NCBI RefSeq assembly: GCF_018350175.1
Contig: NC_058368.1
Location: 58,654,001 to 58,718,000 of the forward strand
Source of the DNA: Felis catus
Lineage: Eukaryota
Reading direction: 5' to 3'
DNA length: 64,000 nt
Below are positions 3,481 through 23,206 of the stretch, piece by piece (position 1 is the first letter of the stretch; every line of letters starts with the position of its first letter). Below the pieces are notes generated by a model that saw nothing but the letters and a program-made list of their open reading frames with translations, was not told the origin of the DNA and ran no database searches. The position numbers were made by a program, and so were the translations under genes.

Positions 3481-3676
3481 TTATAACATACTCTTTAAAC
3501 CTTTGCAGAAGTAGAAAAAGAGTTCCTTTCCATAGTTCTGATATTTTTTCCTGTACAAAATGAGCTCAGCTCTGATTTTCTGATTTGCACATCTCTGTGT
3601 AAATTTTAAAGTCAATTAAGAATGCCTGGTAAGAAAAATGCGGCAGTGGCTACCCCACTTTCAGAAACTAATTTTT

Positions 3677-6600
3677 TTTTGGTTAAAGTTTTATTTATTT
3701 ATTTATTCATTCATTCATTCATTCATTCATATTAAATATAATTTATTGTCAGATTGGTTTCCAAACAACACCCAGTGCTCATCCCAACAGGTGCCCTCCT
3801 CAATGCCTATCACCCACTTTCCCCTCTGCCCCTCCCCATCAACCCTCAGTTTGTTCTCAGTATTTAAGTCTCTTATGGTTTGCCTTCCTCCCTCTCTAAA
3901 TTTTTCCCCCTTCCACTCCCCTGTGGTTCTCTGTTAAGTTTCTCAGAATCCACATATGAGTGAAAACATATGTTAACTGTCTTTCTCTGCCTTATTTCAC
4001 TTAGCATAATATCCTCCAGTTCCATCCATGTTGCTGCAAATGACCAGATTTCATTATTTCTCATTACCAAGCAGTATTCCATTGTATATATAAACCACAT
4101 CTTCTTTATCCATTCATCAGTTGATGGACACTTAGATTCCTTCCATAATTTATCTGTTGTTGAAAGTGCTGCTATAAACATTGGGGTACATGTACCCTAT
4201 GCATCAGCACTCTTGTATCCCTTGGGTCAATTCCTAGTTGTGCTATTCTGGGTCATAGGGTAGATCTATTTTTAATTTTTTGAGGAACCTCCACATTGTT
4301 TTCCAGAGTGGCTGCACCAGTTTGCATTTCCACCAACAGTTCAAGAGGGTTCCCGTTTCTCCACATCCTCTCCAGCGTCTATAATTTCCTGATTTGTTCA
4401 TTTTAGCCACTTTCACTGTGGAAGTGGTTTTGATTTGTATTTGATTTGATTCTCAGTGTGGTTTTGATTTGTATTTCCCTGATGATGAGTGACGTTGAGC
4501 ATCTTTTCATGTGTCTTTTGGACGTCTGGATGTCTTCTCTAAAAGAAGTGTCTATTCATGTCTTCTGCCCATTTCTTCACTGGATTATTTGTTTTTTGGG
4601 TGTGGAGTTTGGTGAGTTCTTTATAGATTTTGGATACTAGCCCTTTGTCTGATATGTCATTTGTAAATATCTTTTCCCATTCCATCAGTTGCCTTTTAGT
4701 TTGGTTGATTGTTTCTTATGCAGTGCAGAAGCTTATTAACTTCATGAGATCCCAATAGTTCATTTTTGCTTTTAATTCCCTTGCCTTGGAGATATGTCGA
4801 GTAAGAAATTGCTGCAGCTGAGGTCAAAGAGGTTTTTTCCTGCTTTCTCCTCTAGGGTTTTAATGGTTTCCTGTTTCACATTCAGGTCCTTCATCCATTT
4901 TGAGCTTATTTTTGTGAATGGTGTAAGAAAGTGGTCTAGTTTCATTCTTCTGCATGTTGCTGTCAAGTTCTCCCAGCACAATTTGTTTCCTGCTTTGTCA
5001 AAGATTAGTTGGCCGTACATTTCTGGGTCAAATTCTGGGGCCTCTATTATTTTCCATTGGTCTATGTGTCTGTTTTTGTGTCAATACCATACTGTCTTGA
5101 TGATTACAGCTTTTTAGTAGAGGCTAGAGTCTGGGGTTGTGATGCCTCCCGCTTTGGTTTTCTTCTTCAATATTACCTTGCTATTCGATGTCTTTTGTGG
5201 TTCCATACAAATCTTAGGATTGCTTGTTCTAGCTTTGAGAAGAATGCTGGTGCAAATTTGATGGGGATTGCATTGAATGTGTAGATTGTTTTGGGTTGTA
5301 TTGAAATTTTAACAATATTTATTCTTCCAATCCATGAGCATGGATTGTTTTTCCATTTCTTTTATCTTCAATTTTCTTCATAAGCTTTCTATAGTTTTCA
5401 GCATACAGATCTTTTGCATCTTTGGTTAGGTTTATTCCTAGGTATTTTATGATTCTTGGTGCAATTGTGAATGGGACCAGATTTTTTACCTCTCTTTATA
5501 TTGCTCATTATTGGTGTATAAAAATGCAACCGATTTCTGTATATTGATTTTGTACCCTGCAATTTTGCTAAATTCATGTATCAGTTCTAGTAGACTCTTG
5601 GTGGAATTTGTCAGGTTTTCTGTGTAGAGTATCATGTCATCTGCAAATAGTGAAAGTTTGACTTCATCCTTGCCAATTTTGATGCCTTTGATTTAATTTT
5701 GTTGTCTGATTGCTGATGCTAGGACTTCCAACACTATGTTAAGCAACAGTGGTGAGAGTGGCCATCCCTGTCATGTTCCTGATCTCAGGGGGAAGGTTCT
5801 CAGTTTTTCCTCATTGAGGATGATATTAGTTGTGGGCTTTTCATAAATGGCTTTTATGATGTTTAAATATGTTCCTTCTATCCCGACTTTCTTGAGGGTT
5901 TTTATTAAGAAAGGATGCTGAATTTTGTCAAATGCTTTTTCTGCCTCAATTGACAGGATCATATGGTTCTTATCTTTTCTTTTATTAATGTGATGTATCA
6001 CATTGATTTATTTGCAAATACTGAACCAGCCCTGCAGTCCAGGAATGAATCCACACTTGATCATGGTGAATAATTCTTTTTATATGCTGTTGAATTCTAT
6101 TTGTTAGTATATTGTTGAGAATTTTTGCATCCATATTCATTAGGGATATTGGCCTATAGTTCTCTTTTTTTGCTGGGTCTCTATCTGATTTGGGAATCAA
6201 AGTAATGCTGGCTTCATAGAATGAGTCTGGAAGCTTTCCTTCCCTTTCTATTTTTTGGAACACCTTGAGAAGGATAAGTATTATCTCTGCTTTAAATGTC
6301 TGCTAGAATTCCTCAGGGAAGCCATCTGGTCCTGGACTCTTATTTGTTCGGAGGCTTTTGATAACTGATTCAATTTCCTCACTAGTTATGGGTCTGTTCA
6401 AATTTTCTATTTCTTCCCATTTGAGTTTTGGAAGTGTGTGGTAATTTAGGAATCTGTACATTTCTTCCAGGTTGTCCAGTTTGTTGGCATATAATTTTTC
6501 ATAGTATTCCCTGATAATTGCTTGTATTTCTGAGGAATTGGTTGTAATAATTTCATTTTAATTCATGATTTTATCTATTTGGGTCCTCTCTCTTTTCTTT

Positions 6601-9106
6601 TTGAGAAACCTGACTAGAGGTTTATCAATTTTGTTTCTTTTTCAAAAAACCAACTCTTGGTTTCATTGATCTGCTCTACTGTGTGTTTGTTTTTTATTTT
6701 TTAATCTACATTGTTTTTTTCTGCTCTGATCTTTGTTATTTCTCTTCTTCTACTGGGTTTGGGGTGTCTTTGCTGTTCTCTTCCTAGTTCCTTTAGGTGT
6801 GCTGTTAGATTTTGTATTTGGGATTTTTCTTGTTTCTTGAGATAGGCCTGGACTGCAATGTACTTTCCTCTCAGGACTGCCTTTGCTGCATCCCAAAGCA
6901 TTTGGATTATTGTATTTTAATTTTCATTTGTTTCCATATATTTTTAAATTTCTTCTCTAATTGCCTGGTTGACCCATTCATTCTTTAGAGGATATTCTTT
7001 AACCTCCATGCTTTTGGAAGTTTTCCAGACTTTTTCCTGTGGTTGTTTTCAAGTTTCATAGCATTGTGATCTGAAAGTGTGCATGGTATGATCTCAATTC
7101 TTTTATACCTATTAAGGGCTGTTTGTGACCCAGTATGTGATCTATCTTGGAGAATGTTCCATGTGCACTTGAGAAGAAAGTATATTCTGTTGCTTTGGGA
7201 TGCAGAATTCTAAATATATCTGTCAAGTCCATCTGGTCCAATGTATCATTCAGGGCCATTGTTTCTTTACTGATTCTCTGTCTAGATGATCTATCCATTG
7301 TTGTAAGTGGGGTGTTAAAGTCCCCTGCAATTACCACATTCTTATCAATAAGGTTGCTTATGTTTGTGATTAATTATTTTATATATTTGGGGGCTACCAA
7401 ATTTGGTGCATAGACATGTATAATTGTTAGCTTTTCCTGATGGATAGACCCTGTAATTATACAATGCCCTTCTTCATCTCTTGTTACAGCCTTTAATTTA
7501 AAGTCTAGTTTGTCTGATATAAGTATGGCTACTCCAGTTTTCTTTTGACTTCCAGTAGCATGACACATAGTTCTCCATCCCCTCACTTTCAATCTGAAGG
7601 TGTCCTCAGGTCTAAAATGAGTCTCTTGTAGACAGCAAATAGATGGGTCTTGTTTTTTTTTGTTGTTGTTGTTGTTTTTTTATCCATTCCGATACCGTAT
7701 GTCTTTTGATTGGAGCATTTAGTCCATGTACATTCAGTGTTATTTTTGAAAGATAATGGGTTTAGAGTCATTGTGGTATCTGTAGGTTTCACACTTGTAG
7801 TGATGTTTCTGGTACTCTGTGGTCCTTGCAACATTTCACTCACAGAGTCCCCTTAGGATCTCTTGTAGGGCTGGTTTAGTGGTTATTAATTCTTTCAGTT
7901 TTTGTTTGTTAGGGAAAACCTTTATCCTTCCTTCTATTCTGAATGACAGACTTGCTAAATAAAGGATTCTTGACTGCATATTTTTCCTGTTCATCACTTT
8001 GAAGATTTCCTATCATTCCTTTCTGGCATGCCAAGTTTCAGTAGATAGGCCTGCTACTACCCTTATGTGTCTACCTTTGTATGTGAAGGCCTGTTTATCC
8101 CTAGCTGCATTCAGAATTCTCCATTTATCCTTGTATTTTGCCAGTTTCACTATGATATGTCATGCAGAAGATCAATTCAAGTTATATCTGAAGGGAGTTC
8201 TCTGTGCTTCTTGGATTTCAATGCCTGTTTCCTTCCCCAGATTGGGGAAGTTCTCACCTATGATTTGTTCAAGTACACCTTCAGCCCTTTCTCTCTCTCT
8301 TCTTCTGGAATTCCTATGATACTGATATTATTCCATTTGATTGCATCACTTCATTCTCTAATTCTCCCCTCTTACTCCTGGATTTTTTTATCTCTCTTTT
8401 TCTTAGCTTCCTCTTTTTCCATAGTTTTATCTTCTAATTCTCCTATTCTCCCCTCTGCCTCTTCAATCTGTGCTGTAGCCACCTCCGTTTAATTTTGTAC
8501 CTCATTTATAGCATTTTTAAATTCATCATGACTATTTTTTGGTCCCTTGATCTCTGTAGCAATAGATTCTCTGCTTTTTTCAAGCCCAGCAATTAATTTT
8601 ATAACTATTATTCTAAATTTTTGTTCAGTTATATTGCTTAAGTCGGTTTTGATCAATTCGTTAGCTATCACTACTTCCTGGGGTTTCTTTTGAGAGTTCT
8701 TCCGTTTCATCATATTGGCTAGTTGTCTGTCCCTTATGTGTTTTAAAAGCTTGTTGTGTGCTCTGCACCTGTGAGCACTGCTATATTAAAGGGGGATCAT
8801 ACACCGTCTGGAGCCTGGCCCCTCAGGAGGTGTTTTCTTGGAATTGTTACTTTCTCTCATTTGTTCTGACTTTGGTTATTTTATTACCCTACTCATAGTG
8901 ATATTTTGGACCCTCCACCAGGTGTGCTTTGATTTGTTCCTTGGAGTAGCCCTATCTTTTCTCCAGTTTTCCCATTTTCTTCCTGGCAGATTCAGTCTCT
9001 TTTCCTCCCAGACTCTGGGGTTCAAAGTACTTTGCCTTCAGCACTTTTTTTTTTTTGAGAGACATGGGAAGTACGGATCCCCCTACTTCTCTGCCATCTT
9101 GGCCCG
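3677..9106 (-). mobile_element. LINE-1 with 5' end retained and most of the 5'UTR missing (probable spliced copy); ORF1 and ORF2 disrupted
   Basis: 5' start gggccaagatggc at ~9105; ORF1 ATG at 8713 (MMKRKNSQKK); EN and RT fragments in the ORF track ([30 protein letters not shown]); 3'UTR and tail at ~3677-3950; 14-bp TSD agaaactaattttt (3663-3676) / agaaaataattttt (9107-9120). Confidence 0.97.
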
Positions 9107-9259
9107 AGAAAATAATTTTTGATTATTTGAATCAATTCCTTTATTTGTTTAAAAGTGTAACTTAAAGAATTTGGGAAAAAAAGGATTTTATTAAGGTAGA
9201 GTACCCACACAGTAAACAACAAGACAGTTTATACTACTGTTTTTTTATGTTGTATAGAT

Positions 9260-9416
9260 CAGTTCTTCAAAAATGTTGATGTGCTTATAAATCACCTGGG
9301 AATCTTGTTACAATGAAGGTTTTGATTCAGGAGGACTGGGTAAAGCCTGAAATTGTGTGTTTTTCTAACCATCTTCCAAACGATGTTACTTCTGCTGACC
9401 TTGGAACATGCTTGAT
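9260..9416. mobile_element. MER5-like hAT-Charlie relic
   Basis: aatcacctgggaatcttgtta..gattcagga..ggg..gcctgaaattg resembles MER5 consensus. Confidence 0.7.
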
Positions 9417-9839
9417 GTATTAAGGAGATTGACCATAACTGCTGTAAATGTTACAGGCATTTTAAAAAAGGGGGAGAGTGCCAGATGTAAGCCCTCAGTG
9501 TTGGGAAAAATTGTAAAAGACTTTGAAATGGGCACATACAGAAATAAACTACTGGGTATTCTATTAACAAAGCCCTCTGGGTTAGATGATTGTATAGGGT
9601 ATGCAAATGTTCACTGCCATTGAGATACTTTATAAGACTCTATGTCAGAGAGAATTGACAACAATGCAAATAACTCCTGCTGAAAGAAATTAACTTTGTC
9701 TTGTGTTTTTATGATTGATTATTGCCTTATGAATATTGAATTTTATTAACAAAATGATTTTAGGATTTTTGATTACATGTGTGTCTGTTCTTTGAATTCT
9801 CCTATAAAGTAGTTTAGATCTTATTGGTACCCTCAGTAA

Positions 9840-10170
9840 ATAATAAGCATATAAAATTTTTGTTCTGTAGTCATTTTATATTTGAAATAGAGTCATGATC
9901 TTATCCTTAAAATATAGATCTTTGAACTTAATGGAAGGCTTCATTTAAGAGTTAGAATTTGAATTGAGCTTGGATACATAGGTAAGAAACATTTAGGTCA
10001 AGAGGGTGATAGGAAGAATATATTCTAAGAAAAGGAACAACATAAGACAAGTAATGGGGCATTGATAATGACATTGATGCATTTATAAACAGGCAGGTAA
10101 GTGTGATTGGTAGTGAGGCTTAGTGTGGGTTTATAACTAAGGATTTAAATGGGCATGTCAACCTGGATGC
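9840..10170 (-). mobile_element. L2 fragment
   Basis: ggaaggcttc..tttgaattgagctt..aaggaacaacataagacaa typical of antisense L2. Confidence 0.5.
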
Positions 10171-10962
10171 AATATTTAAAGAAAATTAGTGTAACATACA
10201 ACATAAATATCAAAAGAAGAGTGTAAATAAAGATAAAAATGCAGGAATCCCTAGTACTTTGGTGTAATTCATGACATAATTATGCAAATTTAAGCCAAAA
10301 TTGACAATATTTAATGAATGACTCTATAAAGGATAAGGGGGGAAAAAAACAAAGTGACCATACTGTTATTTTCAGAAGCTTTTTTTTACATTAAAATCAT
10401 TTAAAACTTATAGAAAAACAGCAAAATTAGTATAGATATTCTGATGTAATCAGATTCAACATTTTTAAAAATTTTACTGAGCTTGATTTCTCTCTCCCCT
10501 ACCCTGCATGTGTGTGTATGTGTGTGTTTATATCATCCCTCCCTCTTATATCTTTCCTTCTCTCTTGCTTTCTTTTTCTCTTATCTATTATCTTAACCTC
10601 CTGAAAATTGGTATCAGTATTATAATTCTTACAGTTTTGAAGTAGAATTTTTATAGAATGTTGTTGCCCCTAAGAATAAAATATAAATATTAAAAAAATA
10701 AATTAAAGAAGACCAGACATTTTGGAGAGAAGTTGTCTTGATCAATATAGATCTGAGTCAGCAAACATAAAATAGCATTTCACTTGAAATTAAGCCTTTG
10801 TACTACGATATGTCACTTGAATTTTTGGACAAAACACTGATGAGACATTTTTCTTTCACAGGTACTATAGAAACTGGATATTTTTCTGAGTATGTTAAGA
10901 TTCCTAACTTTAAGAGACATTTGAATTTGTCCACAAAGTTTCTCTTATTTTTTATTGAAGGT

Positions 10963-11305
10963 CAGGTATCATGAAGCTATGGTTTAAGGGACATATCTAA
11001 CCTGTTGCCTGCTTTTGTATATAGGGTGGAGACAGTAAAATAAAGATGGTTTAAATTTAAAAAAAAATTGAAAAGTTAAGGAATAATATTTTGTGATATG
11101 TGCAAAAATATATAAAATTCAACTTTCAGTGTCCATAAATAAAGTTTTTTTGGAACCCAGCCATGCCATTCACTTATGTAGCATCTCTAGCTGCTATCCA
11201 TTAGAATGGCAGAGTTGAATAGTTATGACAGAGAAGGTTTGTCCCACAAAGCTTAAAATAGTATATAGTCTTTTATAGAATCAAAAAAAAAGTTGTCAAC
11301 ACCTA
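10963..11305. mobile_element. MER58B-like hAT-Charlie element
   Basis: ttcagtgtccataaataaagttttt..ggaacccagccatgcc..ggcagagttgaatagtt..gacagaga; ~340 bp with TIR remnants. Confidence 0.85.
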
Positions 11306-11707
11306 CTTAAGGTGATATGAGGTAATCTGTCTCCTTCTCTAACCGTGAAATGATTGACAGTGGTGGTGGTACCCAAATATGTGTTTGTTCCAGTTTGGGA
11401 TACCGTGAGGCTGCTTCCCCATGATCTCTCAGAGACATATTATTACATGTTGTATAACAAGTTATGAAATATAAAGAACTGCTCCCCACATTTTCCTCTC
11501 TCCCTTGGGAATTGAATGGCCTCTGCCTTCTATACAATTCCCTCCCAATGGTAGCTTTCCAAGCCCAGTTTTTCCCAGATGAACAAAAAAAATACTCAGA
11601 TGGATAATGGCCAAAATGCCTTAGCTGTGAGACCAAGGGTCGCATGGCCCATTTCGCTCTGCAAATTTTTCATTCATTGGGAACAGATGGGTGCAATACT
11701 TGGTAAA

Positions 11708-11900
11708 GAAGTTCTCAACCCCCCTAGGGACATTTGGAAATGTCTGGAGGCATTTGAAAAATTTTTTTCTTAAAAACTGAAAATCAACTATCAACAGTTA
11801 ATGGAGAGATTATAGGGGTGTGAAACATCATGCAATGCATGTGACAGTGAAAAATTACCCTTTGAAAGATTTCAACACACTCTCATTCAGAAATATTGCT
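11708..11900. mobile_element. MER20-like hAT element
   Basis: gttctcaacc..gggacatttggaaatgtctggaggcattt..aaacatcatgcaatgca. Confidence 0.7.
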
Positions 11901-12853
11901 TTAAAGCATTAAAAACAAAAATGGAACTTTTATTTTCTCTCTTTCAAAACACAATCAAAAATTGATATGGTGCCCATCTGGCTCCGCAACAACTACAACT
12001 AGTGAAATAATAACTCTCAACTAGACAATGACAAGTGCTCAATGCTCTCAGTCTTGTGTGGTTTTCCTGTAGTCATTTGGAGACAAGTTTTAGACGAGTT
12101 ACTGTTTTTTTTAAATAAATGAGAATGATTAATTATAAAAATATATCTTATAATATTTTAAAAGATTTTGAGAGAATTGTTCCCCTTTAATTTAATACAG
12201 ATTAATAATCTCCAAACTGTTTCATAAATGAAAAGCATGATCTTTTTCATTTTACTCACGTATACTCCTGAAATGAAAATTTTTTTTTTAGCCAGTGGTT
12301 AGGAAACTTATAACCTCATAGATTTTAGCCCTCAAAGAGGTACTGGCATGGTTAATTGAGTAATTAAATTGGAACACATTTTTTAAAATTCCACATTAGA
12401 ATTGACCAATCATTTTTCATTTTCAGCAAATAGTCCAAAGTTAGATCTATAGATGCACTACAGTAAAGCCAGGTATTTTAACAGAATATATAATGAAAAG
12501 GACTCCAGGAATTTTAAGCTGAATTGGTAAAACAAACCCACAATGGATTAGGGCTATTCATGATTTTAGTGTGGTTGACAAACTTCCCTTTTTGTTCTAT
12601 GAAATATTACCAAGGAACTGGAGATACAATTTTTATTTTCGATCTCCAATAAATTCATGACCTATTACTAATTTAACCTTTATGTATATATGACTTATAT
12701 ATCGTGAATCGTTTTGAATATCATTTTTCACTTTCCTAAACCTGTAAAGGGAAGTTTTATTATTCCTGTGGGGTGTTTTAATCCAAAGCAAAACTGTGCT
12801 TTGGGCAAAAACAGATTGTGAAAAAAGCCAATGGAGAAGACAAGCACATTCTT

Positions 12854-14254
12854 TTTTTTTTTTTATGAAATTTATTGACAAATTGGTTTCCATACAACAC
12901 CCAGTGCTCATCCCAAAAGGTGCCCTCCTCAATGCCCATCACCCACCCTCTCCTCCCTCCCACCCCCCATCAACCCTCAGTTTGTTCTCAGTTTTTAACA
13001 GTCTCTTATGCTTTGGCTCTCTCCCACTCTGACGTTTTTTTTTTTTTTTTCTTTTTTTTTCCTTCCCCTCCCCCATGGGTTCCTGTTAAGTTTCTCAGGG
13101 TCCACATAAGAGTGAAACCATATGGTATCTGTCTTTCTCTGTATGGCTTATTTCACTTAGCATCACACTCTCCAGTTCCATCCACGTTGCTACAAAAGGC
13201 CATATTTCATTTTTTCTCATTGCCACGTAGTACTCCATTGTGTATATAAACCACAATTTCTTTATCCATTCATCAGTTGATGGACATTTAGGCTCTTTCC
13301 ATAATTTGGCTATTGTTGAGAGTGCTGCTATGAACATTGGGGTACAAGTGGCCCTATGCATCAGTACTCCTGTATCCCTTGGATAAATTCCTACCAGTGC
13401 TATTGCTGGGTCATAGGGTAGGTCTATTTTTAATTTTCTGAGGAACCTCCACACTGCTTTCCAGAGCGGCTGCACCAATTTGCATTCCCACCAACAGTGC
13501 AAGAGGGTTCCCGTTTCTCCACATCCTCTCCAGCATCTATAGTCTCCTGATTTGTTCATTTTGGCCACTCTGACTGGCGTGAGGTGATACCTGAGTGTGG
13601 TTTTGATTTGTATTTCCCTGATAAGGAGCGACGCTGAACATCTTTTCATGTGCCTATTGGCCATCCGGATGTCTTCTTTAGAGAAGTGTCTATTCATGTT
13701 TTCTGCCCATTTCTTCACTGGGTTATTTGTTTTTCGGGTGTGGAGTTTGGTGAGCTCTTTATAGATTTTGGATACTAGCCCTTTGTCCGATATGTCATTT
13801 GCGAATATCTTTTCCCATTCCGTTGGTTGCCTTTTAGTTTTGTTGGTTGTTTCCTTTGCTGTGCAGAAGCTTTTTATCTTCATAAGGTCCCAGTAATTCA
13901 CTTTTGCTTTTAATTCCCTTGCCTTTGGGGATGTGTCGAGTAAGAGATTGCTACGGCTGAGGTCAGAGAGGTCTTTTCCTGCTTTCTCCTCTAAGGTTTT
14001 GATGGTTTCCTGTCTCACATTTAGGTCCTTTATCCATTTTGAGTTTATTTTTGTGAACGGTGTGAGAAAGTGGTATACTTTCAACCTTCTGCATGTTGTT
14101 GTCCAGTTCTCCCAGCACCATTTGTTAAAGAGGCTGTCTTTTTTCCATTGGATGTTCTTTCCTGCTTTGTCAAAGATTAGTTGGCCATACGTTTGTGGGT
14201 CTAGTTCTGGGGTTTCTATTCTATTCCATTGGTCTATGTGTCTGTTTTTGTGCC
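12854..14254 (-). mobile_element. Young 5'-truncated felid LINE-1 (L1_Fc-like)
   Basis: Perfect 16-bp TSD agacaagcacattctt (12838-12853 / 14255-14270), poly-T tail, retained CpGs, uninterrupted ORF2 frame. Confidence 0.98.
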
Positions 14255-14285
14255 AGACAAGCACATTCTTGATTGGTTTAGGCAT
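13095..14285 (-). pseudogene. Open C-terminal part of L1 ORF2p (396-aa ORF; first ~10 codons from flank/TSD)
   Basis: [25 protein letters not shown], cysteine-rich [18 protein letters not shown]; no EN or RT core. Confidence 0.93.
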
Positions 14286-15064
14286 CTTGAGTCAGAGTGG
14301 AAGGGTCGCAAGTAGATTCTCAGGGTGCCTCGCCTACCCCTCAGGCACTGTTTCCCACAGGACACTGTCATGCCTACACCATCCACTCCATTTCAATGTA
14401 TGCTTCTATGATATAACTTGTGAGTGTTTGGAAGACTTTCAAGAAGTTTGGCCATACTTTATGTAATCGTCAAATTCTATTCGAATAGAAGTTTTGTCTA
14501 TATAAGGCATGGCTCAATGTCTTTTACCTGCTTGTCACATAAACTTCAGTGTCTTAAGGCATGGAAGGTAAATGTCAATCCCAGTCAATTTGGTTTGGGA
14601 ATCTGATGGGATTTCACAGACTTTAATTATGTTAATTTTGCACAATGACACCACAACCCTTAATTCTCTTTTGTAAAGACTCAACTGAGACTAGGTATGG
14701 ATCAGTTGAAACCAATTATTGCCTTTGACAATAAAAATTGAGGAGCCATCAATAAATCACTCAGCATCTCTAGTATTTAAGGACAGTACCACCTAGGAGA
14801 TTAGCTTCCAAGATCCTCTTGGTGTCCTTATCTGTTAGTAAGCAAGTGCTCTTTCCTAGAGACTTTCTCTAGTAAGGCAGCCAGAATTTCCAGAAAAAAA
14901 TACAATTTTCATGATGTTGGACTGTGCCTTAATCTACCCATGCCACTTCACTTAAAGGGGATCTTATATGTCCATCTACTTTATGGCAACAAAAAACTCA
15001 TTTCTAGGAAGTCTGAGTAAGCACAGTTATTTGTATATAATATATTTTTAAGTATAATTACTTG

Positions 15065-15253: not shown

Positions 15254-16639
15254 TGCAAAGTAGAAGAGGAATCCGGGATATCTCTTTGGAAGAGCAGGTC
15301 CCACTAGGAAAACAGAGATGTGAAGAAAGCCTAATCTGGTCACTAGTAGCTTTTGTACAAGCACCACACTGGAGGAAGTTTAAAAAGACAAATTTAAGGG
15401 AAGAGTTAGGAGGGCATTGCAGTAAGGGGACCTTGGGCTACTCTCATTCCTGGAACACAGCTAGATCAACATCAAATCACTTTGAACACCTAGGAAATCA
15501 ATATGAAGATGAAGAGAACATTCTGAATAATTTGAAGGAGAGAATGTGGCAGGTACACGGTGTGGACAGGGGATTTGGGAGAGAAAAAAGCCCCGGCGTC
15601 ACAAAGGGGTGGAAGTCCTTTTTGTGTAGAGAAGGCACAAGGGGGAGAGAGAGCAGCACATTGGGTTCACACAAGGGAAATACTCTCACAAAACCATTAA
15701 TGGGGGCATCATAAAGAAGTGACTACTGCAAGTTTTTGCAAACACTGGAGCTGAAATTCTGAGTGTTTGGTAGTCTGTATTATTCATTGGAGTGCAACCT
15801 GGGGAGTGGGGGCAGCAATACTCCTAGGGAGAAGGAGAGGAAACCTGGAGTGGATAGACAGCATGGTGTGGGGATCCCTTGGGTGGCACTGGGAGAGAAA
15901 GGTCCCCTTCTTGGAGTGCATTTGGAGAAGGATATATTGCCTCTCTAAGGACAAAAGATCCAGCTGGTTCCTTTGAGTGGCTGTTCAACAACAAGGGACA
16001 GAGGCATGAGCAGAGGGCAGATAAAGTGGTTACAGTTTTTCACTGTGCTTCTTCATAAACTCCAGGCACCTTCATGGCCATGAGACTGCTTTTCTGGGAC
16101 AGAATAGCCCAGGCACAGCGCTGAGAGGCTCTCCTCCAGAGGAGGGGAGTGGGTCCATGCCTTGCCAGACTCTTTAAGATTTGGAGTTTTAAATTCCAGT
16201 GGTACGCCAGAGATAAAACACAGGAAAGCTGTGGTGCTGAGCATGTCAATGGCCCAGGCACAGAAAGGTTGAAGGCAGGGATCTAATGGAAACCTGGGAC
16301 ACAGGAGTGGAGATTGCTTGTCTGTGAGGGATACCTGAACAGCAGCAGGCGCCAGGTCCCCTACCCAGCAGTGAGAGAGTGGGTTGATGCCATCTTCTCC
16401 CACCCACCAGAGCAGTCAGACTCCAGCAAACAGCACAGTGCCCAGGTCGAGGCTGGAGCTGCTTACACCAAACCTCACCCTCCTGCACTCTCAGGGACAT
16501 CTTTACAAGGGCAGGTCTGATTGTGAACCAGCCAGTGGAACTCTCCCCCAGAAAGCCAACACAGTCCCTCCCTGCCCCCATGCATCAAGTCTATTCATCA
16601 CAGAGTGCTTCAAAGCATCAGCTTCAGTTCTGGTGGAAA

Positions 16640-16994
16640 TAGGACCAGGCTTGTTTTTGTTGTTGTTGTTGTTTGTTTGTTTGTTTGTTTGTTTTTCTTT
16701 CTTTTTCTTTGTGTTTTGTTTGTTTGTTGCTTGTTTTTGTTTTTTTTTTTTATCAGGCTTACAGTTTTTAATTCATTTGTTTTTGTTTTGTTTTGTTTTG
16801 TTTTCTTTTTTTTTAGATTGGGTTTTTTTTTTCCTTTCTTTCTTTTGTTCTTGTCTTCTGTTTTGCTTTCTTTTTTTGGGGGGGGATCAGGCTTATAATT
16901 TTCAGTATGTCCATTTGGTTGTTTTTTGTTCCATTTTCTTTTTCTTTTATTTGGATCAAGACTGTTTGTTTGTTTGTTTGTTTGTTTAAATCAG
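16640..16994 (+). repeat. T/GT-rich tandem region in L1 5'UTR punctuated by CAGGCTT
   Basis: CAGGCTT at 16646, 16754, 16888, 16992 separated by (GTTT)n/T tracts. Confidence 0.85.
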
Positions 16995-17225
16995 GCTTAT
17001 TTTAACATACAGATCAAAGCACACCTAGTTAAAGGTCTAAACACTCCTCACTGCAGGCTAGGAGGAACTCTGCATAGAACTAACTGGGGATAGAGCAGGC
17101 AAATTACAACAGCAGTAGAGTGCAGACACAGAATACATTAGAAACACTTCCTGAAGTTCCAGGCCCTGAACAGTGTATATTTAACCCCTTCTTAAGTAGC
17201 ATTACACTCAGAAGCAGGAAACATA

Positions 17226-17434
17226 GGGGTGCCTGGATGGCTCAGTCAGTTGAGTGTCCAACTTCAGCTCAGTTCATGATCTTGTAGTTCATAAGTTTGA
17301 GCCTCGTGTTGGGTTCTGTCCTGAGCACTCAGAGCCTGAAGCTTGCATTGGATTCTGTGTCTCCTCTCTCTGCCACTCCCCCCACCCATGCACTCAGTCT
17401 CTCTGTCTCTAAAATAAACATTAAAAAAAAAAAA
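17226..17434 (+). mobile_element. Can-SINE inserted in L1 5'UTR
   Basis: 15-bp TSD agaagcaggaaacat (17210-17224 / 17435-17449). Confidence 0.95.
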
Positions 17435-18717
17435 AGAAGCAGGAAACATCACAAGTTTTCATGATATGCAAAAGAAAGCAAGCTAGACAAAATGACAAGA
17501 TGGAGGAATTCTCCCCGAAAGAAAGATTAAGAAAAAACCACAGGCAGGGATTTGCTCAAAGGAAATGTAAGTAATATATCTGAACAAGAATTTGGAACAA
17601 CAGTCATCAGAATACTAGCTTAGCTTGAAAAAAGCATAAAAGACTCCAGAAAAACCCTGGCTACAGAAATAGAAGACCTAAGAACTAGTCAGGCCAAAAT
17701 AAAAAATGCTATAACTGAGATACAAAATTGATCTAATTGGATGTAATTACAAGGAAGATGGAAGAAACACAGGATCAAATGGGTGATATAGAAAATAAAA
17801 TTGTGGAAAATAATGGAACTGGGAAGGAGAAGGAAAGAAAATATTGTGTCAAAAATACTGACTTAGGAAAATCAGTGATTCTATAATGTGCAATAATAAC
17901 CATATCACAGGAGTGTCAGAAGAAGAGCGGGAAAAAGATACAGAATGTTTATTTGAAGAGATTATAGCTGAAAACTTCCTAATCTGGGGAAGGAAACAGG
18001 CATTCAAGTCCAAGAGGCACAGAGAACTTTCCTAAAAATCAATAAAAATAGTCAACACCAAGACATATCATAGTGAAACTTGAAAGATACAAAGATAAAG
18101 AGAGAATTCTGAAAACAGGTAGGGACAAAAGCTCCTTAACCTATAAGGGTAGATGCACAAGGTTAGCAGCAGATGTGTCCACAGAAACTTGGCAAACCGG
18201 AGTGAGTGACATGATATATTCAGCGTGCTAAATGGAAAAAAAAAATATGCAGCCAAGGATCCTTTATCCAGCAAGGCTGTCATTCAGAATAGAAGGAGAG
18301 ATAAAGAGTTTCCAAGACAATCAAAAACTAAAAGACTTCATGAACACTAAACCAGCTCTGCAAGAATTATTAAAGGGGACGCTTTGAGCAGGAAAGAAAG
18401 ACTAAAAGCAACAAAGACTAGAAAGGAACAGAGACAATTTACAGTAACAGTGACTTTACCCAGGTACACAATGGCACTAAATTCATATCTGTCAATAATT
18501 ATCTGAATGTTAATGGACTTTACTCTGAATGTTAATGGACTAAATGCTCCAATCAAAAGACAGAGGGTATCAGAAAAAAGACCCATCAATATGCTACTGA
18601 TAAAATTATCATTTTAGACCCAAAGACACCTCCAGATTGAAAGTGGAGAACCATTTATCATGTTAATGAACATCAAAAGAAAGCTGGAGCAACCATACTT
18701 AGACCAACCAGATTTTA

Positions 18718-18933
18718 TTTTTTAATTTCTTTAGTGTTTGTTTATTTTTGAGAGAAAGAGAGAGACAGAGTGTGAGCAGGGGCAGGGGAGGCGCAGAGAG
18801 AGAGGGAGAGACACAGAACTCGAAGTAGGCTCCAGACTGCATGCTGTCAGCACAGAGCCTGATGTGGGGCTTGAACTCACAAACTGTGAGAAGGGGATGA
18901 AGTTGGATGCCTAACTGGCCACCCAGGTGCCCC
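18718..18933 (-). mobile_element. Can-SINE inserted in L1 ORF2 endonuclease region
   Basis: TSD agaccaaccagatttta (18701-18717) / agacaaactagatttta (18934-18950). Confidence 0.95.
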
Positions 18934-21900
18934 AGACAAACTAGATTTTAAAACAAAGAATGCAATGAGATGAATAAGGGCACTATATGATAATAAAGGG
19001 GTCCATCCAACAAGATAATCTAACAATTGTAAATATTTATGCCCCCAAATTGGAAGATGACAAATATAAAAATCAATTAATAACAAACTTAAAGAAACTC
19101 TTCCATAATAATACAATTGTAAGGGACTTTAACACCTCATTTACAGCAATGTACAGATCATCTAAGCATAAGATCGACACAAAAACAATGGCTTTGAATG
19201 ACACACTGGACTGGATGGACTTAACAGTTATAGTCAGAGAATTTCATCCTAAATCAGCAGTATACACATTCTTTTCAAGTGCACACAGAACATTCTCCAG
19301 AATAAATCACAAACTGGGTCACAAATCAGGCCTCAACCAGAATAAAAAGATTGAGATCATACCATGCATATTTTCAGACGACAACACTATGAAACTTGAA
19401 GTCAACCACAAGAAAAAATTTGTAAAGATCACCAATACATGGAGATTAAAGAACATCCTATTAAAGAATGAATAGGTTAATCAGGAAATTAAAGAATAAA
19501 TTAAAAAAAAAACATGGAAGTCAATGAAAATAAAAACATGACAGTCCAAAACCTTATGACAGCAAAGGCGGTCATAAGAGGAAAGTATTTAGCAATTCAG
19601 GATTTCCCCAGGAAGCAGAGAAAAGTCTCAAATACACAACCTAAACTTACACCTGAAGGAGCTGGAAAAAGAACAGCAAGTAAAGCCTAAAGCCAGCAGA
19701 AAGGAAATAATAAAGATTAGAGTAGAAATAAATGATATAAAAAAAAACCAGTAGAACAGATCAATGAAACTAGGAGCTGATTCTTTGAAAGAATTAACAA
19801 AATTGATAAACCCCTTGTCAGACTTATCAAAAATAAAAGAGAAAGGACCCAAATAAAGTCACCAATGAAAGAGAAGGGATTACAATAAACACCACGGAAG
19901 TACAATTATAAAAGAATATTATGAGCAATTATATGACAACAAATTGGGCAATCAAGAAAAAAAATGAGTAAATTTATAGGAATATATAAATTACCAAAAC
20001 TGAAACAGGAAGAAATAGAGTATTTGAACAGAATCATAACCATTAACGAAATTGAATCAATAATCAAAAGTCTCCCAACCAACAAGAGTCCAGGGTCGAT
20101 GGCTTCCCAGAGAAATTCTACCAAAAAATATAAAGAATTAATACCTAATGTTTTTTAACTTTTCCAAAAAATAGAAATGGAAACTTTTGAACTCATTTTA
20201 TGAAGCCAGCATTACCTTGATTCCAAAACTAGACAAAGACCCTACTAAAAAGGAGAATTACAGACCAATATCCCTGATGAACATCTATGTAAACATTCTC
20301 AATGAGATACTAGCAAATCAAATCCAACAATGCATTAAAAAGAATTATGCACCATGATCAAGTGGGATTTATTCCTGGACTACAGGGATGGTTCAATATT
20401 TGCAAAATCAAACAACCTGATAAACCACATTAATGAAAGAAAAGATAAAAACATATGATTCTCTTAATAGATGCAGAAAAAGCATTTGACAAAATACAGC
20501 ATCCTTTCTTGATAAAAACCTTCAAAAAACTAGGAATAAAAGGAACATACCTAACATCATAAAAGTCATATATGAAAGGCCCACAGCTAATATCATCCAC
20601 AATGGGGAAAAACTGAGAGCTTTTCCCCTAAGGTCAGGAACAATAGAGGGATGTCCACTCTCACCACTGTTGTTCAACATAGTAATGGAAGTCCCAGCCT
20701 CAGCGATCAGACAGCAAAAAGAAATAAAAGTCCTCCAAATCAGCAAGGAAGAAGTCAAACTTAGCTATTTACAAATGACACAATACATGGAAAACCAAAA
20801 GATTCCACCAAAAAATTGCTAGAACTAATTCACAAATTAACAAAGTCACAGAGGATATAAAATCAATGTGCAGAAATCTGTTGCATTTCTATACACCAAT
20901 AATAAAGCAGCAGAAAGAGAAGTCAAGGAATTGATCCCATTTACAACTGTAACAAAAGCCATGAGATACCTAGGAATAAAACTAAGCAAAGAGGTAAAAG
21001 ATCTGTATTCTGGAAACTATAGAACACTTATATAAGAAATTGAAGGAGACACAAAGAAACAGAAAAACTTTCCATGCTCGTGGATTGGAAGAACAACTAT
21101 TGTGAAAATGTCTATATTACCCATAGCAATCTACACACTTAATGCAATGGAGCCACAACTATATGGGATTCAACTCATCTTTGACAAAGCAGGAAAGAAT
21201 ATCCAATGGAAAATAGCCTTTTCAACAAATGATGTTGGGAAAATTGGACAGCAACATGGAGAAGAATGAAAATGGACCACTTTCTTAACACTATACACAA
21301 AAATAAATTCAAAGTGGATGAAAGACCTCAATGTGAGACAGGAAACCATCAAAATCCTAGAGGAGAATATAAGAAACAACTTCTTTGACCTCAGCTGTAG
21401 CAACTTCTTACTAGACATATCTCTAGAGGCAAGGGAAACCAAAGCAAAAATGAATTATTGGGGCTTCATCAAGGTAAAAAACATCTGCATGGGGAAGGAA
21501 ACAATCAACAAAACTAAAAGGCAACTGATGGAATGGGCAAATATATTTGCAAATGATACATAGGATAAAGTGTTAGTATTCAAAATCTGTAAAGAACTTA
21601 TCAAACTCAACATCCTCAAAATAAATAATCCAGTTAAGAAATAGTGAGAAAACTTGAATAGACACTCCTCCAAAGAAGACATATAGATGGCTAGCAGAGT
21701 CATGAAAATATCTTTAACATCATTCATCAGGGAAATACAAATCAAAACCATAATGTAATACCACCTCACACCTGTCAGAATGGCTAACTTTAACAATTCC
21801 TGAAACAACAGATGTTGGCAAAGATGTGGAGAAAGGGGAACCCTCTTACAGTGTTGGTGGGAATGCAAGCTGGTGTAGCCACTCTGGAAAGCAGTGTGGA

Positions 21901-23206
21901 GGTTCCTTAGAAAGTTAGAAATAGCACTACCCTATGATCCAGCAATTGCAGTACTAGGTATTCATACAAAGGATAAAAAAGTACTGATTCAAAGGAGCAC
22001 ATGAACCCCCATGTTTATAGCAGCACTATCAATAATAAGCAAATTAGTGAGATAAAATGGAAATATGGAATGGAATATAAGTCATATATATATATAATGG
22101 AAAAAATATATATATAATAGAATATTATTCAGCCATCAAAAAGAATGAAATCTTGCCATTTACAACAATGTGCATAGAATATGAATGTATTATGTTAAAT
22201 GAAATAAGTCAGAGAAAGAAAAATGCCATATGATTTCACTCATATTTTGAATTTAAGAAACAAAACAGATAAACATACAGGAAAGGAAGGAAAAATAAGA
22301 TAAAGACAGAGAGAGGGGCAAAATGTAAGAGACTCTTAACTATAGAGAACAAACTAAGGGTTGCTGGAGGAGAGGAGGGTGAGGGAATGGATTAAATGAG
22401 TGATGGGCATTAGGGAGGGCACTTGTTCGGATGAGCACTGGGTGTTACATATAAGTGATAAATCACTAAATTCTACTTCTGAAACCAATACTACACTCTA
22501 TGTTAACTAACTTGAATTTAAATAAAATCTTGGGAGGAAAAAAAGTCAAATTATTTTACTTTACTATTTTGTTTACCTGGATTTATTAACCTGCTGTTAA
22601 TTCTGTAAGTTTGAAATTATTAAAATCAAGTTGAAATCTTATTTGAAGTCAATTTATTAAATGACATCTTATTTTGTATTCCTTACCACCTCCTCACTGG
22701 AACAAATTTCTTGGTGTTTATTAAACTTTCTACATAGGACATAGGCTTTTGTTTCTTAGTTTTACCATTATTGTCAGGTGGCTTCTGTTTTTTAACAACT
22801 TAATAGGTAGATGAAATAGTTACATAAATACAAGGCATTATTAGAAGTTATAACGCTAATGATAAAGATATACACAGGTCGCTGTGGGTATTGGAGATGC
22901 AGTTCCTTACCCAACCATGGCGCTATGATTCAATCAGGAAATTAAAACACTGCTCTATTCTTTCACATTGTTTTTTTAATAATCATGAGTATATGTTAAA
23001 ATGAAGTTTTACTTAATGTACTTAAAGGCTTAGAATCCAAAACTCTGGAAGGCTATAGATTAGGTAAAAAGGTTTAATTTCATTAAACAGCTTAAATGAA
23101 TACAGAGCAAATTTATTGCTAAATAGGTTCTAGTCTTTGTGCAAAATTAGAAGATTAAACCAAGGTTGTACTATAGTTTTCTAGCTTTAGAACTATTGCT
23201 GAATAT

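Follow-up and report, generated by a model that had tools for sequence, protein, structure and literature searches.

A LINE-1 copy in the cat genome that probably derives from a leader-spliced RNA

The window, i.e. the whole 64,000-nt stretch of cat DNA analysed here, contains a LINE-1 (L1 A) that is, with high confidence, best explained as the product of a full-length felid L1 RNA whose leader intron was spliced out and which was then copied into the genome by TPRT. Judged by every feature that its sequence offers, L1 A can be classed as a putative felid intra-5′UTR SpIRE. Since the breakpoints follow the GT-AG consensus and the same join recurs in other copies, we infer that the spliceosome made it. 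What is new here is a felid L1 leader intron whose donor position is common to two diverged subfamilies.

Results

Architecture of L1 A

L1 A lies on the minus strand and consists of the following parts (a slash marks the join here and below).

3677..9106, minus strand: L1 A, a feliform LINE-1; 5′ end kept, leader internally shortened, ORFs decayed; endonuclease and RT Pfam matches
9107..9120, minus strand: TSD of L1 A, 5′ copy; 13 of 14 positions identical to 3663-3676
8952..9106, minus strand: leader exon 1 of 155 nt with a terminal AG, after which unspliced relatives have RTG-NGT (P0066, P0068, P0069)
8951..8952, minus strand: splice-type join, AG/G, with 3 nt common to both ends; documented by loose ends, bridging contigs, P0061 and P0064
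8714..8951, minus strand: leader exon 2, the 238 nt before the ORF1 ATG; preceded in unspliced relatives by a pyrimidine tract and AG
7838..8713 (end approximate), minus strand: ORF1 remnant with stops and frameshifts
3943..7771 (ends approximate, from sequence), minus strand: ORF2 remnant, broken
3663..3676, minus strand: TSD of L1 A, 3′ copy, after an A-rich/microsatellite tail

An earlier note on this DNA had described an element with its 5′ end, ORF1 start, ORF2, tail and TSD, but with a 5′UTR of only about 390 nt. Our measurements agree with this description: the ORF1 ATG is at 8713, the leader comprises 393 nt and the two TSD copies match at 13 of 14 positions. Both ORFs are present as described, but they are now broken by stops and frameshifts. 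The junction at 8952/8951 also reads as had been claimed, namely ..GAAAAGATAG/GGCTACTCC on the minus strand. The hallmarks of TPRT are there, with a 14-bp TSD that starts with an A run and contains one mismatch, and with a decayed A-rich tail. PF03372 and PF00078 scored above cut-off, and ORF1p, endonuclease and reverse transcriptase follow each other in L1 order.

The best named matches of the ORF1 N-terminus were ORF1p of Felis catus, Panthera leo and Crocuta crocuta. Several ORF1 matches extend upstream into a translated leader unlike that of L1 A, which therefore seems to be of another leader type than theirs. We take the carnivore-type leader of L1 A to be unrelated to the primate leader. 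Exon 2 is homologous to positions 17009-17217 of a second element in the window, L1 B. L1 A itself is a dead fossil and bears no functional sign.

The acceptor side in cognate copies

Related copies were collected by alignment to positions 8714-9400 at 80% likeness, using the DNA contig sets X1 and X4 (one organism) and X13 (a second organism) as well as the oligo-dT RNA run X24; the RNA runs X18-X20, whose word shares were small, were left out. This gave 1659, 1414 and 1490 records in the DNA contig sets and 1490 RNA reads in X24. A flank contig covering 9068-9400 was found without a single difference in all three DNA runs. Behind position 8953, 48 (X1), 44 (X13) and 37 (X4) contigs as well as 288 of the 1490 RNA reads ended loosely, and a smaller set did so behind 8948 (15, 16 and 13 contigs in the three DNA runs; 62 of the 1490 RNA reads). 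Read in L1 sense, the consensus of the loose ends is a T/C-rich tract that runs into AG at 8953-8952. The protein P0067 agrees independently (V-A/L-E-R-K-T), and P0065 as well as the P0072 cluster also run into K/R/E/T-rich sequence on the acceptor side. That is, many relatives carry a canonical 3′ splice site exactly at the start of L1 A exon 2. The RNA reads at the acceptor end in A-rich sequence; since they may represent internally primed intronic RNA, we did not count them as L1 expression.

One ENA contig (P0062, 778 nt) shows exon 2 joined at the homologous AG (8952/8951) to an unrelated purine-rich upstream sequence that lacks a pyrimidine tract and gave no Pfam match. Here the acceptor of the L1 may have been used by a host exon or by some other donor, or a 5′ truncation may fall on this point by chance.

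The donor side in cognate copies

On the donor side we used a chance antisense ORF (8790-9119) that crosses the join and reads G-V-A/L-S-F there. Similar chance ORFs from host DNA are produced by gene callers in ENA assemblies. While a word search with this ORF gave two matches among 14 candidates, 11 were obtained when 1.84 billion proteins were searched with a profile. In four of these (P0066, P0068, P0069 and P0070), exon 1 runs into other sequence at the join. As predicted ahead of the search, a GT after exon 1 requires Y, H, N or D before L; P0068 and P0069 read T-V-T-H/L-S-F, and P0066 reads A-A-T-H/P-S-F. When T-H of these three proteins is back-translated, the intron starts with RTG NGT, so that the donor is fixed at T (+2), G (+3), G (+5) and T (+6), with R (G or A) at +1 and any base at +4. 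The consensus of U1-type donors is GTRAGT, which the back-translated RTG NGT fits at +2, +3, +5 and +6. P0066, P0068 and P0069 belong to one family and do not amount to three independent tests; in P0066 the exon-terminal AG is altered. P0070, which diverges around the donor site, P0063 (stop at the join) and P0071 (other sequence, without AG) were counted neither for nor against. No donor-side loose end was present among the 24 rows listed (678 further), so that the donor is deduced from back-translation.

The earlier note had proposed that the breakpoints would coincide with splice signals in cognate copies, and this was borne out by AG with its pyrimidine tract on one side and the RTG-NGT donor on the other. 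It had also considered whether the family normally has a short leader; this is not the sole form, as many cognates have a long leader. In the long-leader ORFs the intron parts comprise 141-212 residues, and the cognate intron is thus at least 636 nt long. G, A, R and P together make up 0.29-0.36 of their residues and 0.09-0.18 of those in exon 1, in keeping with a promoter body of high GC content.

When exon 1 was searched at the protein level in its second antisense frame, which could have settled every base of the GT, none of five candidates matched. Cognate DNA had no match in viral contigs or in plasmids and phages, and ten matches in metagenome contigs, none of which resembled the window beyond the search pattern. 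GTDB gave no protein match and two short DNA matches (44 and 26 nt), which we took as chance.

Recurrence of the join

A contig was scored as bridging the join when at least 31 letters were aligned on each side of it (24 pieces listed, 4557 further). By this rule at least two contigs, which differ from the L1 A locus by 12-17%, bridge the join, its place in them being given by the alignment and not by the letters at the join itself. Record 5 of X1 (546 nt) spans 8917-9102 with 31 other letters and continues for 366 nt into another flank; record 14 of X13 equals it in length and span. Record 6 of X1 bridges the join from 8921 to 9089 with 20 other letters. Records with a short side of 28 letters (X1 record 7, X13 record 15) or 26 letters (X4 record 23) were not counted. 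Another contig bridges the join in all three DNA runs with a 9-nt skip (8950-8960; 61 letters on the side). Either a small deletion in one more joined copy or the use of an alternative site nearby may account for it.

Two of the proteins, P0061 (80% identical to the ORF of L1 A) and P0064, run through the join ungapped, possibly at the same loci as the bridging contigs. Beyond the L1 5′ end, the flank into which P0064 continues resembles that of L1 A in none of the three frames. The join had been expected to occur in other copies as well, and it does recur in diverged contigs and ORFs, some of which have other flanks. Since the same join is found at other loci, a private deletion in L1 A after its insertion is unlikely. 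The divergence of 12-17% and the broken ORFs indicate that L1 A and the bridging joined copies are old insertions.

The joined copies are not uniform. With P0061 the unspliced P0068 shares 29 of 32 exon-1 residues, L1 A 23 and P0064 17, a pattern that favours repeated splicing from different source elements. On the other hand, L1 A and P0064 have T-L-G and L-Q of exon 1 in common, while all four long-leader copies read in frame (P0066, P0068, P0069, P0070) have A-L-V instead of T-L-G, which would leave room for a small amplified lineage of spliced copies. Summed contig depth does not equal copy number, and the data suggest hundreds of exon-1 copies versus a handful of joined ones seen.

An unspliced relative in the same window

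L1 B, which holds an interval at the corresponding place of its leader, is located on the plus strand.

15395..22539, plus strand: L1 B, from another carnivore L1 subfamily and with an unspliced leader; TSD 15382-15394 / 22540-22552, 12 of 13 positions identical
15553..16994, plus strand: GT..AG interval of L1 B, 1442 nt; homologous in position to the intron that L1 A lacks

The caveat that the two elements belong to different subfamilies was justified. Likewise, GT at 15553, AG at 16993-16994 and the 1442 nt between GT and AG were given correctly, while the first block is not exactly 155 nt long as assumed: the TSD ends at 15394, which makes it about 158 nt. Of the homology proposed for the two pairs of blocks, that of the downstream blocks is clear (score 64, reached by none of 300 shuffles), and the L1 B acceptor adjoins the homologue of L1 A exon 2. 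For the first blocks it is weak from the window alone. Their local alignment score of 29 was reached by 129 of 300 shuffles; their global score of 61 was reached by one of 2000 dinucleotide shuffles and none of 820 genomic windows, and an unrelated window at 15255 ties it. When both leaders were aligned globally at the DNA level with cheap gaps, exon 1 was scattered.

The long-leader proteins link the two donors. Among 1627 offsets, the 25 residues (75 nt) beside the donor in P0069 fitted L1 B best at 15553, if by a small margin (27, next 24), and the donor-side residues of P0068 did so at 15556 (score 18, next 10). Since both fall at the predicted place, the GT of L1 B is the positional homologue of the donor of L1 A. 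That part of the earlier interpretation stands, but the 1442 nt are the intron of L1 B and not that of the L1 A subfamily, whose cognate intron comprises at least 636 nt. The GC content of the 5′ part of the L1 B intron is 51%, versus 35% in the window.

Some further features of L1 B were observed. Before the acceptor (16641-16994) lies an unusually long pyrimidine tract of about 350 nt, which is T-rich, internally duplicated and has 28% GC. The leader comprises 2094 nt, or about 1.9 kb without a SINE-like repeat behind the acceptor (17226-17438) that has a direct repeat on both sides. Another SINE-like repeat, in opposite orientation, is located in ORF2 (18723-18933). At about 21150-21170 the alignment of both elements breaks, and about 200 nt of the ORF2 of L1 A are absent from L1 B. 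Between the two elements, at 12869-14291, lies the 3′ end of another L1, truncated at its 5′ side and probably young, in which the frame of the ORF2 C-terminus is open over about 390 codons.

Discussion

A model for the origin of L1 A

According to the explanation we prefer, a full-length element would have been transcribed from its own 5′ end, and the spliceosome would have removed the leader intron, so that the 155 nt of exon 1 were followed directly by the last 238 nt before the ORF1 ATG. With both ORFs downstream of the acceptor and still translatable, the spliced RNA could have been mobilised in cis, as we suppose by analogy with human elements (accessible part of PMC5860796). Insertion by TPRT would then have left TSD and tail, and the new copy, without most of the GC-rich leader, would probably be poorly transcribed. 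Since the removed part is the GC-richer leader body, most of the promoter is presumably lost, judging from the human work and with GC content as a proxy. Different source elements appear to have been spliced repeatedly. With its homologous donor, L1 B suggests that this intron was present in at least two carnivore L1 subfamilies.

Joined copies could also go back to a single splicing or deletion event, which produced a short-leader master that was amplified as a small subfamily, with L1 A being a descendant and not a first-round copy. We consider this unlikely. It would account for the existence of several joined copies and for the T-L-G and L-Q of L1 A and P0064, where the long-leader copies have A-L-V, and a human SpIRE is described as having regained mobility through a host promoter (10.1101/2025.02.02.635956, as far as accessible). 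However, the spliced P0061 has A-L-V and finds its closest relatives among unspliced copies, and the bridging contigs seem to differ at the family-wide variable site 9012, although this point is weak. In addition, human intra-5′UTR SpIREs are compromised for further rounds according to the accessible part of PMC5860796. Descent from such a master can nevertheless apply to part of the copies alongside independent splicing.

We give very little credence to a chance hit on splice-like signals, be it by a deletion at the DNA level or by a reverse transcriptase jumping along its template with the help of a 3-nt microhomology. The ends of the join do share AG/G, as in a microhomology deletion, and indels also occur elsewhere within L1 A when it is compared with its relatives. 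But the splice consensus extends beyond the shared 3 nt, to the pyrimidine tract on one side and to +2 T, +3 G, +5 G and +6 T on the other, where a match to T, R, G, T is expected about once in 128 at equal base frequencies, and the identical join is found at other loci with other flanks. It is hardly credible that the L1 A subfamily normally has the short leader and that long copies gained the interval or represent other subfamilies. Exon 2 is indeed present in more subfamilies than exon 1 (X1 depth up to 74,500 versus about 20,000), and some of the acceptor-side contigs may therefore not be the closest kin of L1 A. Yet long-leader copies are at least as similar to L1 A in exon 1 (23-26 of 32 residues) as the other joined copies (22-23 of 32), and the diverged L1 B holds the interval at the homologous place, which makes the long form the shared, ancestral one.

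Comparison with primate SpIREs

Intra-5′UTR SpIREs are described for human L1 (SpIRE97/622 and SpIRE97/790; Larson et al. 2018, PMC5860796, which cites Belancio et al. on them), where the accessible text counts 131 SpIREs among 6,609 full-length L1PA1-6 copies (about 2%). L1 A resembles them in its short first exon taken from the L1 5′ end, the GT-AG deletion within the 5′UTR, the kept ORF1 start, TSD and tail, and the recurrence at independent loci. It differs in its felid host and carnivore-type leader and in being an old, decayed copy. Its exon 1 is longer (155 nt versus 97 in human), as is the intron (at least 636 nt in the cognates of L1 A and 1442 nt in L1 B versus 524 nt; human values from the accessible text), and the acceptor of its family, unlike that of human SpIREs, has a long T-rich tract near ORF1. 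Promoter loss and cis mobility were measured for human SpIREs (PMC5860796, accessible part), whereas for L1 A we extrapolate them by analogy. A SpIRE of the L1PA2 type in RAP1GDS1 is described, in the accessible part of a preprint, as re-mobilised from a host promoter (bioRxiv 10.1101/2025.02.02.635956). It illustrates that an L1 with a spliced leader and both ORFs can seed further copies, as would be possible for the L1 A type. Unlike this SpIRE, L1 A has no host exon, and we found no evidence of L1 A as a source.

The literature searched, which excluded most subscription papers, yielded no account of a spliced L1 from the cat or any other carnivore. In the accessible text of PMC5860796 the words dog, carnivore, rodent and non-primate are absent. 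A 2026 review of canine retrotransposons (PMC13756887) does not contain the term SpIRE in its accessible part, where passages on splicing concern host genes, and the available portions of 10.1101/2022.02.16.480772 and PMC5932605 hold nothing relevant.

Spliced and reinserted L1s would accordingly not be peculiar to the primate leader, since a different leader in a different mammalian order is affected, and a GT-AG intron of the carnivore leader would have left genomic fossils. It thereby becomes testable across orders whether leader splice sites benefit the L1, serve the host in restricting it, or are tolerated as the price of promoter motifs. The acceptor of the leader may also be a possible splice target for host exons. 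A further-reaching scenario, in which a strong canonical leader intron was kept through at least two carnivore subfamilies, splicing lies far above the human level of about 2% and the T-L-G lineage amplifies itself, strikes us as improbable; if true, splicing would be a route for L1 promoter change and not a dead end.

Further observations around the 5′ end of L1 A

In the region 8700-12600 of the window, 51-73% of the sampled words were present in two RNA runs and in one run guessed to be RNA. It may be that a transcribed gene has this region in one of its introns, or that the runs include DNA; as to a host gene, no Pfam family was detected in eight non-L1 ORFs of the window that were searched. 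At position 9091, 10, 8 and 9 contigs in the three DNA runs carry one common sequence that replaces the first 15 nt of L1 A; it might stem from a locus present in several copies or from a 5′ transduction, or the family might have a second type of 5′ end.
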